Below are positions 5,901-64,000 of a DNA stretch of 64,000 nucleotides, piece by piece. The stretch covers positions 41,354,001-41,418,000 of the forward strand of contig NC_135803.1 of assembly GCF_964213995.1 (NCBI RefSeq). The letters run 5' to 3'. The stretch is from Mustelus asterias (lineage: Eukaryota). The first letter of the stretch is position 1. Each line of letters begins with the position of its first letter. The notes under the pieces are model-generated. The model made no database searches and was not told the origin of the DNA. It saw only the letters and a program-made list of their open reading frames with translations. Both the position numbers and the translations under genes were made by a program.

Positions 5901-6309
5901 CCATTTCACATATCCATGTTCTCCTGAAGCCTGATAATCTCCAATGCTTCCTGCATTTCCAAATTCTGCATTATTTACAAACTCTGAAATCATGTCTTGT
6001 CTCCTCCAGTTCAGTTCCTTACTATATATTAAAAAGAACAGTGGACCTAGAACCAATGCTGGAGAGCTCCTAAAGTTAGATTTTCAGATAGCATAAAGGA
6101 CATCCTAGTCCTTCACATTTTGCACAATTTTCCTAAAGACACTCTTATGGGATCTACACAGCATAGGCCTATCTAATCCTTCTGCAGAAATGCTCAGTGC
6201 ACGTCCACATGCTCTACAAGGTTTTATTTTTGAAATTCATAGCAAAACCTAGCTCATCAAATTCTTGTATAATTTTATCATTGATTGAATCATTTGCTTT
6301 ATATGAACG

Positions 6310-7450
6310 TAAGAAATAGCAGAAATAGGCCATTTGGCACCTTGTGCCTGCTCATCCATTCATTGATATCATGGCTGACCTGTTTGTATTTCCAATTCTA
6401 CATTCCCATCTACCCCCGATCTTTGATTCCCTTGCCTAACAAGAATCGATCTACCTCTGCCTTAAAAAATATTCAGTGTCCCCGCCTCCATTGCCTTCCA
6501 AGGCAGAAAGTTCCAAAATTGGATGGCCCTCTGAGAGAAACATATTCTCGTCCTCCCTGTCCTAAAAGGACAACCCCTAATTTTAAAACAGAGACCCTGA
6601 GTTCTAGGCTCCCCCACAAGAGAAAACATCATTTCCACATCTGCCTTGTCAAGACTGTTGAGGATCTTCTATACTTCAATCAAGTCACCCCTCGCTCTTC
6701 TATACTGTAATGGAAACAAGTCTACTAAACCTCCTCTGATCTGCCATTTACATGCTTCCTTCAATAAGAAGACCAAAACTGTATACAATATTTGAGATGA
6801 GGTCTCACGAATGCCCTGTATAACTGAAGCATAGTAAGAAGTCTCACAACACCAGGTTAAAGTCCAACAGGTTTATTTGGTAGCAAAAGCCACTAGCTTT
6901 CAGAGCACTGCTCCTTCATCAGGCGAGTGGGAGTTCTGTTCACAAACAGGGCATAACAGGTCCTGTTTGTGAACAGAACTCCCACTCAACTGATGAAGGA
7001 GCAGCGCTCTGAAAGCTTGTGGCTTGTGCTACCAAATAAACCTGTTGGACTTTAACCTGGTGTTGTGAGACTTCTTACTGTGCTTACCCCAGTCCAACGC
7101 CGGCATCTCCACATCATAACTGGAGCATAACATCCTTACTTTTATGTTCGATTCCTCTTGTAATAAAGGATAGCATTCAAGTAGCCTTCTTAATTACTCG
7201 TCGTTTCTGTATGCTAACATTTTGTGACTCGTGCACTAGAACACCTAAATCCCTCTGCACGTCTGAATTCTGCAGTTGTTCTCCATTTAAGCATTCCCTT
7301 TAAGTAATTAAATAATAAAGTAATTAAATAATACTTTTCTACCTTTTTTATTCTTCCTGTCAAATTGAACAACTTCACATTTTCCCAAATTATACTCCAT
7401 CTGCCAGATTTTTGCCCACTGACTCAACCCTATCTATATCCGTTTACAAC
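6310..7450 (-). mobile_element. Degraded CR1 LINE hosting the PLE hairpin
   Basis: CR1 3' UTR and ORF2 C-terminal similarity on both sides of 6834-7115. Confidence 0.75.
6834..7115 (+). mobile_element. Non-autonomous Penelope-like fold-back element (family A)
   Basis: 117-bp inverted arms 6834-6950/6962-7078, ~37-nt tail, 14-bp TSD ataactg(a/g)agcata; CTGATGA...GAAA in both arms. Confidence 0.8.
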
Positions 7451-7605
7451 TTCCTTTCTTCCCTTTGTATTATATATTCATCACTCAATCTATTTCTTTT
7501 AATTGCTAGTTTCCCTTTCTTGCTATGATAATAGAACAAAGCTACAATTTTGTGTGTTGAAGCACTTGCTTCATACTTGGCTCAAAAACAGTTTTAAATA
7601 CGCTT

Positions 7606-7974
7606 ATCATAGAATCCCTGCAGTGCAGAAGGAGGCCATTTGGCCCATCCTGTCTGAACTGACTCTCTGACAGAGTGAGTATCTTACCCAGGTCCTCTTC
7701 CCCCACCCAATCCCCATAATCCCACACATTTACCATGGCTAATTCATCTGACCTACATATCCTGGGACATTTAAAGGGCAATTTTACAATGGCTAATCCA
7801 CCTAACTGCAAACGTTGGACTGTGGGAGGAAATTGGAGCACCTGGAGGAAAACCCACGCAGACACGGGGAGAACATGAGAACTCCACATCGACATTTACC
7901 CAAGGCCAGAATTGAACCCAGATCCCTGGCGCTGTGAGAGAGCAGTGCTAACAACTGTGCTACCGTGCTGCCCC
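7606..7974 (-). mobile_element. HE1-type V-SINE, full length, CR1 tail
   Basis: tRNA head, V-domain gggtttcctccaggtgctcc, ttctatgat tail. Confidence 0.9.
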
Positions 7975-9612: not shown

Positions 9613-9970
9613 CTGCGCAGTGGTTAACACTGCTGCCTCACAGCGCCAGGGACCCGGGTGCGATTCCAGCTTGGGTCACTGTCTGTGTGGAGTCTGCACA
9701 TTCTCCCCATGTCTGTGTGGCTTTCCTCTGGGTGCTCTTGTTTCCTCCCACAGTCCGAAAGATGTGCTGGCTAGATGCATTGGCCATGCTAAATTCTCCC
9801 TCTGTGTACCCTAACAGGTAACCTGGTGTTCCCTGGTGTTGTGAGACTTCTTACTGTGCTTACCCTAACAGATGCCAGAGTGTGGCGACTAGGGGAATTT
9901 CACAGTAACTTCATTGCAGTGTTAATGTAAGCCTACTTGTGATACTAATAAATAAACTTAAACTTAAAAC
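9613..9970 (+). mobile_element. V-SINE with alternative tail, carrying a 43-bp PLE fragment
   Basis: HE1-like head/V-domain then cacagtaacttcattgcagtgttaatgtaagcctacttgtg...aataaataaactta. Confidence 0.85.
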
Positions 9971-10972
9971 TTAAACCATATATCTGTATAAGGTCCATTT
10001 TTGTTCTCTCCCATTGAATGCTAAATAATCCACATTTTCTATCTTTTTGTGTAAGTGTCCTCTGGCACAAAGGATTAGCCTTAAAGCTGTTCTTTGCACC
10101 ACTTTCATTATTTGCTTATTTTCCATGTTGTCGTCGAGGCCAAAACTGAATGCAGTATTCAAAGTGCTGTCCAATCTGAAGAAATACACCTTCAGCGTAA
10201 CCTAATGCTTTATTAGTGTGCGGTTTCCTCACACTGCAGTGTCCCAAAGATGTGCTGCATCTGCTGAGATAGGAACTTACTCAAATCTCTTTCCTGGCAC
10301 AGAACAATCCCTGGAGTTGAAACGAAACAGGAGTGAAACTGCAGGATTAAGAGATTGGCAATTATCCTCCCACTGAATGGAATCTGGATCTTATTGCTGA
10401 ATTGTAGCGAGTCTCCAAGATTGCACTTCGTATAAAATGCCATTTTTCATTTTCTGGGTCTCTCAGGATCCCCTCACAGACAGTCTCAGTATCCTTCCTT
10501 CCATCTTTCCTTCACACTAACTTTGAGCATGTACTTACTCAGATACAGGCTGAACACCTCTTGGTCAGTGAGTCAACCATTAATCCCAGGCTGTGTGGCA
10601 GGTCTGACGTTGTACATATTGGACCAGTGCTCTGTCCCTCCGAAGGACAAAGAAAAGGAAAATCTATTGTATAATTTACTTAAATTGGTAGTTTAGTTAA
10701 GCATTCCATTTGCTTTGTTGACTGGTCTGCAATGACTCTGCATGGCCAGTATTGAGTCTAATGTTTCTCCCAGATCACTATCTCTTGCCAATTTGATACC
10801 AGTGTGTCTGGCACTTTTTCCAATGCATAAAATTTGTAATTTCATTGAATTCCATCTGACAAAACAACAAGCCATTTAAATAGCGGCAATTTAGAGATAA
10901 GCATTTTCATGAGTCCTTTTAGTGGAGTCATTTCCATTGTAATATAAGCTATGTGTTTCTCTTCCTTTCCAG

Positions 10973-11068
10973 ACTCGGATGACCAAAGAACAGCGCTGGG
11001 GAAGTGCATTACTGACCCGGAACCACTCAACAGAGGAAGAGTTTGAAAGAGCAAAGGCAGCAGTTGAG
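10973..11068 (+). CDS. PEX5L: PEX5L exon TRMTKEQRWGSALLTRNHSTEEEFERAKAAVE
   Basis: Polypyrimidine + ag acceptor; 96 nt; near-identical to human ARLTKEHRWGSALLSRNHSLEEEFERAKAAVE; weak donor gag|gtctct. Confidence 0.95.
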
Positions 11069-13236
11069 GTCTCTAAATGTTTTCACCATTTTCCCCTGAT
11101 TTAGAGTACAGAACATGACTGGAAAATCTTTCCAGTTTGTACATTAAAAATAACATACCCCTTTTCACAGAATGGATTATAAAACTGCAAATCAGATACG
11201 TTCAGTATGCAATGGTCTTTTCCACACTTCTGATTAGATAATATCCTTATTTCTATTTCAGCTCTTATTTTTAAGGCTCAGAAAATGCCATCCTGCATTT
11301 CCTTCCTTCCAAGATCAGGGTTCATCGCAGTGTTTTACATTAACTCTATCCAGTTTACAGAATTGTTTCATAGGTTCTCCTTCATTGATCTTTACGTGAT
11401 CTTATTTTGCTTTGTGATATTATGGTTCAAAGCAAGTTATAGCCATCATAGATTAGAAGCGGAGAAGGCTTCTGAATATAACCACCCAGAAACTTTGCAA
11501 TTGCTGATATTCTTATCTTACTCGTTCTTCTCTTCCTCTTCTCTTTATTAGCAGCAGATTTGATGTCATGTAGTCACTTTATGAATAGAATATTAAGCTA
11601 TATCATATTCAGATTTACTTCATCTTTCTTATTCTTTGCAAGCTTAACGATGACCTACAATACAGAGACTTAACCTTCTCCTTCATTGCACAAATGTCAG
11701 AATGTGTGGATTGAAAAGCTTCTAAACAATGTAGCATTGCTTCCTTTTATATGGTCAACTGTAATGAATGGGTAAGAATCCTTAGGCTTTTTCAATTGAA
11801 ACCATGTCAATAATTAGCTCCATTTTTCACATCTTCTAAATTCTGCTTGAAGTGCTGCATATATTTGACTAGCATTGACTTGTGTGGGTGATTATATTCA
11901 GAAGCCTTTTCCGCTTATAATTTATGATGGCTATGACTTGTCCTGAACCATAATAACACGAAGCAAACTGAGACACTTAAAGGTCAACAAAATGAGAACC
12001 TAAGAAACAATTCTGTAAGTAGCCCAATACTGATTCAAATATATTCCATTTCTACGGTAATTACATCTTTCATATAGCTACTGAGGAAATTACAGAACTA
12101 GTTGGGAAATACAATGTAATGCCACTAAAATATGATCTGTTAAACATTACTCGCCTTGTCTGGTGTGGCAAACTGCATGTAGATATATTCACCACCATTA
12201 CACCCTCCATGCTTAACAAGAACTGCCTGGCAAGTAGTAGAGGACATTGCTTTCACACAGAAATTATGCCAGCATTTTTGGCCATCTTACTCTGCCACTT
12301 CAGTCTTTTCCGAGCTGTTCAGTTGGATCATCTCCATGAGCTTACATACAGTGCTAGCTCCATTGAAGTGGAGTGGAGACCTGTACTTCAGTACTCCCGA
12401 AAGCCCCTGACTAAGTGATTGGCTGAACCTGTGGTTTTTGATTGAGAAATGAAGAACATGGAAGCGGGGTGTAAAAGTGCACATCCAGACTCGCCTCACT
12501 ATTTTCCCAATCAAGGGACATGTGTGGTTAGTTGCACCACACAGGGGAGTGGGTGGACTATTGGAGTTGAGGCAGGAGATCAGTGATAATTATACTGAAT
12601 GGTGGAGCAGGCTCAGTGGGCAGCATGATGTACTCCTGCTCCTACTTCTTATGTTCTTCATATCAGATGATCATTTTCTACTGTAATATTAAAAGCCATG
12701 CAAAAATTTCATCAACAAATGAACTAATAAATAAACATCAGTGGATATAATTGCAATTAAGTAGTCCTAGACTTAGTCAATTGATGGCATATTACACCAT
12801 ATTTAAATGCTGCTGCTTAGGCTTCCGAAAAGGGCAATTTTAATCACTATTTGACAAAACTGAATTATTAACTTCATATGTTAACTTCACCATAAGTATG
12901 GATAGTGGAATATGTATAATTATCAAAAGCAACTAGCATTCATGAGGTTGCATTGTCACTCAAAGGACACTTTTGAAACCTATCCTGAAAAGAAGCTTCT
13001 AGAACACCATAGTTTGTAAAGCAGGCTTATCCTTTCTATTTTCTTCTTAAGCATTCACACTCAAACTCAATCTCATCTAGCAAATGTCTCATTCTGCTGT
13101 GACTTACAAAAAACACCAGCTTAATTGGACATCTGTGCGTAATGAATAGCCGCCAAGTATTCTCCATGGTTTATTGAATTGAAATTAGCTTGTGACTGAA
13201 GTACTTTAGCTTTTGTATTTTATTGTCCTTTAACAG

Positions 13237-13353
13237 TCTGACACAGAATTCTGGGATAAAATGCAAGATGAATGGGAGGAAATGGCACGTAGGAATTGGA
13301 TTGCAGGAAGTGAGCAGCCACCAACAAACACAACTATCTCCCCACATGAGAAG
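13237..13353 (+). CDS. PEX5L: PEX5L exon SDTEFWDKMQDEWEEMARRNWIAGSEQPPTNTTISPHEK (HCN CNBD-binding core)
   Basis: taacag acceptor, aag|gtgatt donor, 117 nt; matches TRIP8b SDTEFWDKMQAEWEEMARRNW. Confidence 0.97.
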
Positions 13354-14055: not shown

Positions 14056-14792
14056 AGGGAGTCCGAAGTGCTGTGACAACATGCACTTTTCACATGCATG
14101 TTGTAGTCTGGAGCTATGGATAGTGATGGTACACACTCCAATTTTCTTGTCATCACATGACTGATCAAGAACCTCTCTCACTGTTACTGAGTCTCTTTCT
14201 CAAAAGGCAGTGGAATTGGAGAGTCTTTTAAATATTCTTTAAGGCAGAGGTAGATAGATTCTTGATAAGCGAGGGGTTGAAATGTTAATGGGGGTAGGCG
14301 GTAATGTGCAGGTGAGGTCACAACCAAATCAGCCATGATCTTATTGAATGGCGAAGCAGGCATGAGGGACATGGGGGCTTACTCCTGCTTCAAATGTTTA
14401 TATGTACTACCTGCCATTGGCATGTGTTAGAAGGATTAATTCACAGGTTGGTTATGTTTGAGTCCTGGGATTGGACTCAAACTTGGAGTTTCGAATTCGG
14501 GGGTAGGGATGCTAGTCAGTAACTGTAATACTAACCGGTTAAAACTGGTTAATGTGGGCTGGAAGGAGTAAACAAATGTTAAATTGATCATTCTTGTGAT
14601 AATTATGAATGAAACAATTTAGTTGTTGTAACCCAGTAATCATGAATAGCAAGGTAATAGTGAATAAATTATATTATTAAAATGCCTATGAAGCTATCAG
14701 TCAGCAGAACAATTTAGTTCTCAAGGTTGGATAAACAATTCTGACAACTATTATTGCACAATGTTATTAATTTCACTTGACCTTTGCTGCAG

Positions 14793-14936
14793 GGTTATTA
14801 TTTTCACACTGACAATCCCTTCAAAGACTGGCCCAATGCATTTGAGGAAGCAATAAAAAAGCAGAAAGAAGGAGATCTGCCCAATGCTGTCCTACTGTTA
14901 GAATCAGCAATTTTACAGGACCCCTACGATGCAGAG
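14793..14936 (+). CDS. PEX5L: PEX5L exon GYYFHTDNPFKDWPNAFEEAIKKQKEGDLPNAVLLLESAILQDPYDAE (TPR1)
   Basis: ctgcag acceptor, gag|gtaggc donor, 144 nt; PEX5-family NPF/TPR1 motif. Confidence 0.97.
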
Positions 14937-15705
14937 GTAGGCTAATGATATTTAGCAATCATAATATGTTAAAAAAAGTAAAATATGTCAATAATCGTAG
15001 AAATTCAAATAATGTATAATGCTTTTGAGTTTTACAAATACGAGATGCATTTTGATTGCTCTCAGTGCTATGATATATACAAACATGATTTCCAATATAT
15101 ATAAACCTATTATTAACTCTTAATGTTCAATGTATTCTATTGCATTTATCAATTAAGTGCTATACCAATGTGGGGTGTGGTAGTTGGAGAATTGTTGTTC
15201 TTCAATAAAGTACATATTGCTTTACTGTTATGAGCAGAAGTTAAATGGATTATATTCTAATACACTAATTGTACTTCTGCAATATTTGGAATGGGCTTTC
15301 GCATGAAAATCTGACCTTTGAAATACTATTAATGGGGCTATGCCCAATGATAGAGAACAGTTTACAATGCTTTTTTATCACAAATATTTGGAACCCACCG
15401 TGAAGTTTGAAACTGATAGGCTTTTAACAATTCATATTTGCATTGTGATGTTAACATAGTAAAACAAGGTGTTTACTTCCAATAATATAAATACAAAGTT
15501 TCTCCACCTTCATTAATGACATTCTAGATCTGCAACTGGGAAATGCTTGAGCATCCCAAGGTATGTGTCTTCTTTGGATTTGCCCTGGATTAACCCTCTG
15601 TACCCAAGAAACATAAATGCTAATTTTTTCATAACTGACAATGTCTCCAAAAATATGACTTGTCAGTGTGTAAATGTCCTCTGGTAAAAGAGAGAATTTT
15701 GTCAG

Positions 15706-41226: not shown

Positions 41227-42924
41227 CCTGCATTCCATCAAACATTTAAGGTTATACATGATATATAGGATTGGGATTTCCATGTAAATGCTAAGAATGC
41301 TGTACATATCAGGATTTTTACCGTTAATTTTACAGCAGAACTTTCATGGGGGCTACGTGAGCCATTCCTAAATGCTATCCAATGGTTTTGCAGTCATTTT
41401 CGTACGATGAACAAATTGGAATTTATCAAAATTCAATCAATCAGAAATATGTCTCACACAGCCAATTTAAGATACAGTATACCTTTTAGTTGGAAGTATT
41501 TAAAAGCTGAATAGCAGGCATAACAATGTTTCGTACATTTGATAAAGTGTGGTAATGTTACATTTTTCTCATAATTAGAATATCCAAGCTGTGTTTTGAG
41601 TCATTGCAATCTTTACACCATTGTCCATTTTATTCCCTCCACTTGGGAAGCTGGGACGTGATGCACTTTAGTAAAAAGTTCAGTTAAATGTCATCAGAAC
41701 AGCACCTCTCATAACTAAAGGATAGAATTGAAGGTAGGATTCAGTTTAGCTCTAGTTACAATGGATTGAGAAAACGGGCTGAATTTTCTAGCCCTTCCCG
41801 CTGGCGGGATCATTCAGTCTCATTGATGGTAATCCCCCTCCCCCCTCCCCTCCCGTCTCCTCACAACCTCCCCTCCACAGCGGGTTTCTCGGTGACAGAG
41901 AGTGCAAGCCACACAAAGCACCATTAACAACAACCAGACCAGAATATCCCACTGGCAACCAATGGCGGACCTCTACATGCCAGAAAGGTACCCCGGGGGA
42001 TGGGGATTGGAGGGGGGTGGGAAGAAATTCCCATCCGTAATTTCCAAACTATTCTTCTTACATTTAGACCATTGAGGTCTTACCTACATCCAATGTACAG
42101 AACAACAACTCCTCAGTTACAGCAAGATTTGCTACTTAGACAAACCAAACTTCTATAGCATCATCTGCTTTGTTGCAGAAAATGGAATGCCAGATGGACA
42201 GGAGAACTTCAGGAGTTTTCATGTCATCCTTATGCACAGAACGTGTAAATCTTTTTCATTTCAATTTGAGGGATTTAGGCAAGTAATGAAAGGAAATTTA
42301 TTATGTTAATTAGTTTCATCTGCTGATTTCAGTTAATTAAGATTACTTTCTATTTCTATACATCTGTGGCTTTTTACTTCATTTCCCCCCTCTCATCAAA
42401 CTTACATCTTTGCAGCGTCTGTCAGCACAGGTTTTGACAAGCCCATTTATATCCTATGATAATTCTGAAGTGATGAGACACAACCCTTTCTGTGGTAATG
42501 GAAAAAGATGGATAAATGTGAGCCAACAGACAACAAGTAGAGTTAATTATATTCTTGAAAAATACTCTTATTTATAAAAGCAATGTTAATCGAAAGAAGA
42601 TGAAAGGAATACATTTCCACATCAAAATGGATCCATAGAAATTCAATAGAACTTCCTCTCACTGAAAAATACTTTTGTTTCTGTAAAAATGGTATAGATC
42701 CCATTTTTCCCATTTGGGTTATTCTACCCTAAAGAATGCTATATGTTAAAAGTCAACGTTTTGCAGATTAACCTTGCAAAATAAATTTTCTATTGGATCC
42801 AGTTTAGGATGGAATATGAAAGCATTTCACCATTTTATGTTGTTTTAATAATTTTGTGATTGGTTTATTTTCCAGTCTGCATCCATGAATGACTGTTATT
42901 GTTTCCATTTATTTATGTCTTTTC

Positions 42925-60718: not shown

Positions 60719-61186
60719 ATTAATTCCTCACACGATAATGTGAAGGTCCCAGTTTCAATGGAACTGACTTGGTGTCATTTTCATCACATTCAATTCCTCC
60801 TTCAAAAATTCCATAAAACGCAGGAAAAACTAAACTGTGATTGGTTGATCATCCCTCACTTTTCAGTGCAATCGCATGTTCTTTGTCACAAAAGGAAACC
60901 AACAAACAAAAAGGTTCTTTCTGTTCAGTGGGAAACTCACCTCACAACAATATGCAAACAGTTGTATTTCACATTAGACAAACGCTACAGTGAGAGAAAG
61001 TTTCAATAGTCAAACAGATAATTAACACAAGAAATCAGCATGATCTTTTTTCAATAAATATGACAAAAGTTTACTCGTAACTGATTTAGAGCTGAATTCA
61101 TTCTTTTTAATTACTTCTCTTGCTTCATTTTGTAAACTTAGGTTTGCTAATTGGCAGCATGTGTTAACACATTCCAGTGGACTTAC

Positions 61187-61340
61187 TTCCAGGTCCATCC
61201 TTGATTCTGGGCCCTGCTGGTTCTGCTTCCGCATTTGTAGTAATCTGTGATTCTGTATCAACATCCGATTCTGTTTCATTCTCATCTTCATTGTCTGCAT
61301 GGGTGAAGATCCAGTCCAGTGCTCTCTCCAGGTTGTTATT
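61187..61340 (-). CDS. USP13: USP13 exon [20 protein letters not shown]...GPRIKDGPG
   Basis: ttttgtag acceptor, a|gtaagt donor, 154 nt; [12 protein letters not shown] is USP13-type (USP5 has NNSLERAVDWIF). Confidence 0.95.
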
Positions 61341-61790: not shown

Positions 61791-63758
61791 GTCCCACTAA
61801 AAAGCATCTGTGTTACATCAGTGGAGCAAAAAGGCACTAAAGTATTAATGAAGATACTGGATGGGATTTTCCGTCCCGTCCCAGCGACAGGATCTTCGAG
61901 TCCCGCCAAAGGCAATCCCCTCCCTCCCCACCCCTGCCGTGGGTTCCCTGGCAGCTCGGACAATGAGCAAAGCAAATGGCCACTGACTCTGGCGGGATCA
62001 GAAGATTCATGCTTTGCCACCTATATTGAACAAATGGCACGACCAAACTTCCACCACTAGATGGAGCCCAGGACTTAGTGAGCATTCAGAAGGGAAACCA
62101 GGAGCAGAGCCAGCAGCTGAGAGCAGATCCCGAGGACTAAGGTAAGAGCAGAGGCCAGGAGGTGAGGATGGGAGTCAGTGGGGTCAAGAGACAAGAGGGA
62201 GGAGAGGGCGAGTTAGCAATGCCAGGAGATGCAAAGCCCCAATAAGGAGGTAGAGGGATTAAGAGCAAAGGTGAAGGCACGGTGGCAAAAAGGGATATCT
62301 ATGGCAAATTACATTATGTGAAACTAGCAATGATAAACAGATGTATAACATTGTTTCACAGTAACTTCATTGCAGTGTTAATGCAAGTCTTATTTGTGAC
62401 TAATAAATAAACTTCACTTTACTTTTTACTTTGTTATTAAAGACGCTAAAGTGAAAGAAGGTTAAGTGAATTGACATTAGCAAAGACCTACTGTATTTCA
62501 GTTGCATTAGTTACTTAATGTGAAATTATCTTTTCATTAGTTAACTAGCAACCAATAGATCAAACTAATGTTTGATCGAAGTTGATTTTGGTTTGTTTAT
62601 TACAGTAAAAGTCTTAAAAACTTGGAATCTTGTCCTTTGTTTCTCTACACCTTCACTGGAAAACTCATCTCTTTTTACAAGTTATCAGTCTTTACAGGAT
62701 TGTAACAATTTGCAAGCCTAAACAGGAGGTCAGATGGTTATTTGTGAAAAACCCAGGCAACAGTCAAACCCAAACATCTCTTTACAAATATACATGTAAA
62801 AGCATCCAAACACTGTGGTTTCAAGAGCAGCTCAGAGGCTGGGGATTCTGTGGAGGGTAACTCACCAAAGCCTGTCCACCATCTACAATGCACAAGTCAG
62901 GAGTGTAATGGAATACCCTCTACTTCCCTCAGTGCAGCTCCAACAACACTGAAGAAGCTTGGTACCTTCCAGGGCAAAGCAGCCAACTTGATTGGCACCC
63001 CAACCACCAGCTTAAACATTCATTCCCTTTAACCATCAGCATACAGTGTCAGCAGTGTGTTCCATGTACAAGGTGCAATGCAGCAACCCACCAAACCTGC
63101 TTTGACTGCACAGTCCACATTTGTGACCTCTACCACTTAAAAAGGACAAGGGCAGCAAACACATGGTAACACCACACTCTGCAAATCCCCCTCATCACCA
63201 CCCATCCTGATTTTGAACTATGTTCTGTTGCTTCACTGTCACTGGGCCAAAAATCTGGAACTCCCTTCTGGACAACACTGTGGTGTGCCTACTCTAGATG
63301 GACTGCAGCGGTTGAAGACGCCAGTTCAACACTGCCTTCTCAAGGGCAACTAGGAATTGGCAACAAATGCTAGCCTTGCCAGCAATGCTCACATCCCAGG
63401 AACAAATGAAAACAACTTCCCAGCAGACAGCACTGCACATAACACAGTAGAAGGAATGAGTTACCTAATTCAACACAAGTCATTGATGGAAGCAGAGATC
63501 TTCATGGTCGACGTGGCTAAATATCACACAACTTCCATTTACTGACCGAGCCATCTACTTAAAACAGATGCTTACACATGAATAGGAACTGAAACTTTAA
63601 CAAATCGCCATTTTTTATGAAAGACTTTGTTTGAAAAGATTACTGAATATTTAACAGTTTAGCCACATAAGTAATCTCAGATTACACATTGATAGAAGGG
63701 GTGACACCATTTGTGTTCAATGGTTTGCTGTGAAAATACGATGGGAATTCAGACTTAC

Positions 63759-63928
63759 AGTTGCTTTCAATGCGTGGATGGTCTGGTTCCTGGGAAATCC
63801 CATTGATGTAATGATGGCAACAATCTCTTCTGGTGGCTGGTTTTCCACTGAAGAAGCCCCTCCAGCTAGGCCCACCTCATTATGGCTAACTTCATTATAT
63901 CCTGATAGTGATAGTGGTTCAGCAAAAT
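63759..63928 (-). CDS. USP13: USP13 exon (D)FAEPLSLSGY...[29 protein letters not shown] (UBA2)
   Basis: ttcccccattag acceptor, act|gtaagt donor, 170 nt; matches human [28 protein letters not shown]; UBA MGF motif. Confidence 0.95.
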
Positions 63929-64000
63929 CTAATGGGGGAACAAGAAAGTTTCATTGGTGATTTTAAGTATAGAACAAAGAACAAAGAAAAGTGCAGCACA

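Follow-up and report, generated by a model that had tools for sequence, protein, structure and literature searches.

Mirror-image ends of a Penelope-like element in Mustelus asterias: a probable dead-end insertion enclosing hammerhead motifs, and the spaced palindromic target preferred by its family

An inverted truncated copy, a one-sided tail and minimal hammerhead ribozyme motifs (min-HHRs) on opposite strands have all already been published for Penelope-like elements (PLEs). The layout is exemplified by Pen2a_Av of Adineta vaga (PMC3846280), in which a 5'-truncated copy lies next to an inverted truncated copy whose pLTR is 37 bases shorter; a one-sided tail of 30-40 bases and a target duplication of about 8-14 bases complete this PLE layout (PMC3846280, PMC8557442). 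The min-HHRs described in PMC4209133 are characterized by CUGANGA, one extra base before stem II, the G10.1-C11.1 pair, a palindromic 15.2-16.2, a short stem I and no helix III; in that paper a lone min-HHR showed no cleavage, dimers cleaved weakly, and pairs on opposite strands 100-700 bp apart were attributed to truncated PLEs (its searched supplement text yielded no cartilaginous fish). For the insertion reaction the point of reference is PAc, the Poseidon element of Anolis carolinensis, which is predicted to be a dimer, cuts and extends both DNA strands, uses uncleaved RNA as template and has a tail between its two RT start sites (PMC11167929). Animal non-LTR retrozymes, found in one cartilaginous fish among other hosts, are non-coding, hammerhead-bearing and PLE-related (bioRxiv 10.64898/2026.07.22.740005).

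The window analysed here is a stretch of 64,000 nucleotides of Mustelus asterias (contig NC_135803.1, positions 41,354,001 to 41,418,000 of the forward strand), and the positions given below count from its first letter. Within it lies a 282-nt insert made of two inverted arms, a centre and a one-sided tail, enclosed by a target duplication. The arms (6834-6950 and 6962-7078) are each 117 nt long, with 5 differences between them; the centre (6951-6961) measures 11 nt, the tail (7079-7115) 37 nt, and the 14-nt duplication (6820-6833 and 7116-7129) contains one mismatch. A reading made from the sequence alone had proposed exactly this anatomy, and direct sequence comparison confirms it. The inverted copy pairs with the sense arm over 6834-6950 and tracks the parent sequence as far as 6955. 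Folded as RNA, the insert reaches -237 kcal/mol (z -30.9), a stability equalled by 0 of 100 shuffles. The features are as follows.

6300-7290, minus strand: old LINE fragment interrupted by the insert, 3' part of a CR1-type RT frame (outer limits approximate)
6816-6818, plus strand: CTG, left half of the symmetric target signal CTG-N16-CAG, seen in the empty site
6820-6833, plus strand: left target-site duplication, ATAACTGAAGCATA, 14 nt, in the ancestral state that other copies of the host repeat share
6834-6955, minus strand: copy of the PLE 3' end in inverted orientation, 5'-truncated and lacking the tail
6891-6925, minus strand: minimal hammerhead motif of the inverted copy
6956-6961, unstranded: junction filler ACAGGT, genome-unique, a short stretch in which the complement of the sense arm's opening bases is copied again
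6962-7078, plus strand: copy of the PLE 3' end in sense orientation, 5'-truncated (pLTR part)
6987-7021, plus strand: minimal type I hammerhead motif of the sense arm, predicted cut after 7018
7035-7040, plus strand: AATAAA, family-conserved, on the PEX5L sense strand, intronic, possibly usable as a polyadenylation signal
7079-7115, plus strand: one-sided PLE tail, 37 nt; in full-length copies the ATG of the next frame stands directly 3'
7116-7129, plus strand: right target-site duplication, ATAACTGGAGCATA, differing by one A-to-G change
7131-7133, plus strand: CAT, right half of the target signal (one mismatch to CAG)
2864-2963 and 10973-11068: further in-frame exons, AG/GT-bounded; the insert lies between them
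13234-13353, plus strand: exon matching PEX5-related protein (PDB 4eqf), E 5e-11
14781-14942, plus strand: exon matching the same protein, E 7.6e-21

The insert thus shares its principal parts with Pen2a_Av; it differs in that both copies are cut to 120-150 bases with no coding sequence left, in a host that holds tens of thousands of such ends. The retrozymes are direct tandem units with a hammerhead in each, all on the same strand, whereas the insert joins two ends head to head and has a single core on each strand; a retrozyme identity is rejected on that ground and because no direct repeat of the arm occurs within 6300-7700.

Removing the insert together with one copy of the duplication restores a LINE, and the host is therefore a LINE copy that the insert has split. 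The reconstructed empty site matches a long RT frame at another locus (L031; tblastn E 2e-35) and is crossed unbroken in 17 of 38 blastn matches to other copies of the repeat, where the duplicated sequence is single. This LINE, named CR1 in the sequence-only reading, is presumably of CR1 type. As to the placement in the PEX5L pre-mRNA, the two downstream exons match 4eqf, while the upstream reach of the intron depends on the two AG/GT-bounded in-frame exons that flank the insert, 2864-2963 and 10973-11068, which are presumably those of PEX5L (a PDB search with the stretch 10964-11053 gave no relevant match). At the far end of the window, on the minus strand, exon-like frames with UBA-like stretches (61167-61340 and 63720-63950) presumably represent USP13, the usual neighbour of PEX5L. 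Three other residents may be recorded: another copy of this PLE end, older and with both tail and intact core, G10.1-C11.1 kept, at 2311-2438 on the plus strand (the strand of the core at 6990, 4.7 kb upstream of it; no inverted arm of similar length was seen beside it); a very short stub of the PLE end at 9821-9865, within another repeat, with 34 bases equal to the arm and the full tail absent; and a decayed U6 snRNA-like sequence at 42193-42291 on the minus strand (30.8 bits against an Rfam cut-off of 44), probably a retrocopy.

The arm has an autonomous parent. A search of the 3.68-Gb genome with the arm gave 2,735 candidates, of which 40 were scored, and 16 of the best matches were extended; these 16 copies have a common end and a variable upstream reach. 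At one locus (L040) an RT domain (PF00078, E 6.6e-08) lies upstream of a 3' end that is identical to the window arm plus tail at 149 of 153 positions (97%). Its RT region has 10,676 candidates in the genome, and 3 of 20 fetched RT-matching loci retain open frames of 912-913 codons. Direct pLTRs that hold the hammerhead flank the ORF in L057, L061 and L066; the order at L057 is inverted copy, pLTR with tail, ORF, pLTR with tail, and the ATG abuts the tail. (In PAc, by contrast, the ORF starts within the hammerhead and the tail lies within the ORF; PMC11167929.) The L057 protein has 892 residues counted from that ATG, a PF00078 match (E 1e-09), ADKGG (the DKG motif) at 296, RT motifs and a CX5CxxC linker, CHSNLCKTC, at 754; its C-terminal end reads, motif by motif, as GIY-YIG-like (VYLIRC..GC....YIGET and EH...EH), a Pfam endonuclease match being absent. 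A comparison of the parent protein with PDB gave no match. PMC8557442 defines Neptune/Nematis by a CX2-5CxxC linker between RT and EN together with the DKG motif, and by these definitions the parent would be a C-terminal EN+ PLE of Neptune/Nematis type, with its endonuclease read from motifs. The intact frames come from a sister subfamily; in the window copy's own subfamily, longer copies (L051 and L053, 145 of 154 positions matching) have broken frames. The exact tail 28-mer occurs 57,995 times in the genome. The Penelope-like origin put forward in the sequence-only reading is borne out by a parent that carries RT and the same arm and tail (L040, L057), and so, by L057 and the published PLE layouts, is its view of an inverted pLTR plus short tail as typical PLE architecture.

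How do ends of this kind come to be arranged as mirror images? The population was sampled without regard to likeness to the window, from the first 63 tail sites of C1 by position and from 40 arbitrary 10-kb stretches. An inverted copy adjoins 43 of the C1 tail sites and a direct copy 1, with none found at 19 (some of them script misses); in 38 of the 43 cases the inverted copy breaks off 19-50 bases before the end of the tail is reached. Over all loci there were 121 candidate pairs, a duplication being called in 79, of which 46 come from the unselected loci. These 46 duplication-flanked fold-backs measure 102-1,987 bases with a median of 274, so that the 282 bases of the window insert sit at the median, and 22 of them carry the core on both strands. 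(Lengths are given from duplication to duplication: sense-arm lengths cluster at 135-139, probably through a subfamily that diverges from the two references used.) Target duplications range from 9 to 20 bases and are mostly 11-13 (52 of 79). Some loci deserve separate mention. A fold-back at L003:1464-1778 carries the full tail at both ends instead of the usual one-sided tail; L035, L045 and L046 (C1:39.34-39.42 Mb) are one insertion with its flanks in three near-identical copies, a local segmental or tandem duplication that is counted once; and contigs of four sequencing runs at the window locus are dominated by other copies and reveal neither an empty nor an occupied orthologous site.

The explanation that we regard as very probable is that the insert stems from a single insertion in which two copies of the autonomous PLE's 3' end, each 5'-truncated, were joined head to head; it is likely to be a dead end, and its ribozyme motifs are predicted to be locked in a hairpin. 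The sequence-only reading had seen instead an ORF-less mini-retroelement family mobilised in trans; such an element would be transcribed as a hairpin and reinserted as a unit by the PLE protein. That proposal can draw on the abundance of the type, since a pattern search finds at least 209 fold-backs of similar size that turn within the same 30-base zone, some with recurring centres, and on precedents for other sequence mobilised in trans by PLE ends (PMC3846280) and for non-autonomous PLE derivatives (bioRxiv 10.64898/2026.07.22.740005; PMC8557442). Dispersed copies of fixed length sharing the window's internal junction are nonetheless not what the genome contains: a 31-mer across that junction matches once in 3.68 Gb with up to 2 mismatches allowed, insert lengths form a continuum, and the centres of 45 of the 50 fold-backs listed among the 209 are distinct (counted by eye). 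The recurrent centres, 10 of the 50 listed, fall into four groups, one near match included; three of these groups have self-complementary centres, the outcome expected of independent annealing. Arms diverge by 3.3% within one insertion and by 9.0% between insertions (77 insertions), with several subfamilies represented. The mini-element is very unlikely on this evidence; a short non-coding template RNA may still be the source of the stumps, because short inserts dominate so strongly. Long inverted repeats within a target duplication might also suggest a DNA transposon of the MITE or fold-back type, or a DIRS derivative, an identity that the parent element rules out and to which we attach next to no probability: the one-sided tail prevents the repeats from being flush with both ends, duplication lengths run from 9 to 20, and the element from which the ends derive encodes an RT and has PLE motifs.

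The head-to-head pair of truncated PLE ends brings its hammerhead motifs with it. The core, CUGAUGA-A-stem II-GAAAGCU-H, occupies 6990-7018 on the plus strand and recurs as its mirror on the minus strand. Alignment of the family shows core columns that are 94-100% constant, but sequence outside the motif is equally constant, and the telling point is therefore where variation is located: at position 7 (A 0.47, C 0.34, T 0.19) and at position 17 (T 0.69, A 0.30; G in only 1 of 104 cores found by pattern at unselected loci). Stem pairing was assessed in the two window arms and in those 46 of the 66 distinct cores whose loop has 3 bases: 93% of the cells are paired, stem II has one-sided changes only, and one pair swaps both sides between C-G and U-A (19 and 23 of 48), possibly in a single event. 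In the 104 unselected cores the closing pair of stem I is C-G in 58 and U-A in 40. Because the free positions 7 and 17 vary while the core is constant and the stems pair, the family motif is, on its sequence, a genuine PLE minimal hammerhead, with all the hallmarks of the published min-HHRs enumerated above (PMC4209133). The proposed minimal type I motif is upheld to that extent. The idea of a core in each arm needs qualifying, in that each core lies on its own strand and a transcript contains a single one, and the extra A after position 9, for which a viroid precedent had been cited, is present and counts among the hallmarks listed for PLE min-HHRs (PMC4209133). An Rfam scan of the window at E ≤ 1 returned no hammerhead family, which says little because minimal PLE hammerheads lack helix III.

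The window copy itself departs from its family. A6989 of the sense arm places A opposite G and breaks the closing pair of stem I, which sets it apart from the min-HHRs of PMC4209133 (0 of 114 unselected arms have this A), and T7010 turns G10.1-C11.1 into G.U, the state of both window arms, where the family has G-C in 91 of 104. On either strand the complementary arm is transcribed ahead of the core. Equilibrium folding predicts a stem II probability of 0.81-0.99 for isolated cores cut right after the motif and of 0.000 within the whole insertion, on both strands and at three transcript lengths. Addition of downstream sequence to the isolated sense arm lowers the predicted value from 0.83 to 0.05 and then to 0.004, and since the extended isolated arm loses stem II in this way, predicted folding does not show that the parent hammerhead works unaided. 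An active ribozyme in the PEX5L pre-mRNA, as originally suggested, could appeal to the sense core on the PEX5L strand, to the hammerhead pattern kept by the family and to the PAc hammerhead, which cuts once protein is added (PMC11167929). It would have to contend with a single core per strand when min-HHRs need a partner (PMC4209133), with a complement that is transcribed first and a predicted stem II probability of 0.000 in the insertion, and with the two changes at A6989 and T7010. One core per strand, the complement made first and two weakening changes make cleavage in the PEX5L transcript unlikely as modelled, and we consider it highly improbable that this pre-mRNA is cut or regulated by a functional ribozyme from the insertion.

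The less familiar part of the story is the family's preference for the target CTG-N16-CAG, with matches between target and element at both ends. At a threshold of at least 5 of 6 matches, the motif is present at 32 of the 46 unselected sites against 1.1 expected by shuffling, and at 53 of 79 overall; it was derived from the same sites on which it is scored, so that the test is not independent, though the excess is considerable. At the site of the insert the sequence is CTG-N16-CAT. Over the 79 insertions, the end of the duplication (read in each case from the copy that does not touch the element end in question) agrees with the continuation of the element at 2.25 of 4 bases for the inverted end and 2.37 of 4 for the tail end; simulation with the same caller gives 1.42 of 4, with maxima of 1.68 and 1.80 in 60 runs. 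Six independent insertions (L008, L039, L073, L123, L144 and L146) apparently occupy one site of one host repeat, with a flank like TTGG(T/C)CATAGAAGACAG; this shared site is likely to be a hotspot created by the symmetric target. PAc prefers AT-rich DNA and its RT start sites are non-homologous to the DNA that is cut (PMC11167929), in contrast to a spaced palindromic target with short target-element matches. The Neptune/Nematis linker is tied in PMC8557442 to microsatellite targeting, whereas the present family, assigned to that clade by motifs, prefers CTG-N16-CAG. The titles and abstract openings listed on shark PLE hammerheads and on twin priming or double-strand targeting in PLEs contain no description of the family or of a spaced palindromic target, and an entry in Repbase or Dfam may exist.

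A mechanism can be proposed that accommodates these features. The element protein would cut both target strands about 12 bases apart at the symmetric site, and each target 3' end would prime cDNA synthesis on uncleaved element RNA, one cDNA beginning where the tail ends and the second 37 bases inward of that point, with a few bases of target-RNA pairing assisting. Both cDNAs would stop after 120-150 bases, and end joining would seal them with a short templated filler, in this case ACAGGT. In its cutting and extension of both strands, its two RT start sites on either side of the tail and its uncleaved template, such a course agrees with PAc (PMC11167929). The copied RNA had presumably not self-cleaved, because both arms extend some 57-64 bases beyond the predicted cut. 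A pile-up of truncations at that cut, which was also considered, is rejected: among the 43 arm ends within 40 bases of it, 3 lie no more than 2 bases away, about what an even spread gives on this rough measure. Two-ended priming fits a target that is symmetric and has short target-element matches at both ends, and we lean, with modest confidence, towards a family that integrates by a two-fold symmetric double cut at CTG-N16-CAG with a stagger of about 12 bases, both 3' ends priming at two fixed RNA points, possibly on two RNAs held by a protein dimer, the stumps being its record.

One can instead keep the same parent and the same dead-end product and let the inverted arm arise by fold-back self-priming of a single cDNA, or from an antisense template; the classification is unaffected, and only the step at which the inverted arm originates is different. 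Self-priming has been proposed for palindromic PLE junctions (PMC3846280), the window junction does contain a micro-hairpin (AACAGG-T-CCTGTT), and subfamily letters are as a rule common to both arms of an insertion. The difficulty for this alternative is where the inverted arm ends on its outer side: this end is fixed about 35 bases in from the end of the tail, and its agreement with the target duplication exceeds chance. The two-fold symmetry of the target and the extension of both strands by PAc from two start sites (PMC11167929) also speak against self-priming, which we judge to be doubtful, though it deserves to be taken seriously. As to whether two-ended priming would draw on one RNA or two, 27 of 120 transversion differences between the arms of 77 insertions fall on common family polymorphisms, in a set that included loci chosen for resembling the window arm; among 43 unselected insertions the count is 8 of 42 against 4.5% expected, with at most one per insertion. 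Two of the letters at which the window arms differ are seldom met in the unselected set (0 of 114 arms and 1 of 113). Two RNA templates per insertion are possibly involved; in the unselected loci a weak excess of differences falls on common polymorphisms, and mutation hotspots could explain it.

The window insertion is ordinary and does not qualify as a new ribozyme element. What makes it useful is that it is one among many fossils of PLE integration, and the intact frames in this genome make the geometry of the cut and two-ended priming directly testable with purified protein. When transcribed, the stumps would put about 120 bp of double-stranded RNA into introns, a putative substrate for editing and small-RNA pathways. 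If the two-ended symmetric cut is true, the tens of thousands of mirror-image stumps would constitute a natural record of integration.
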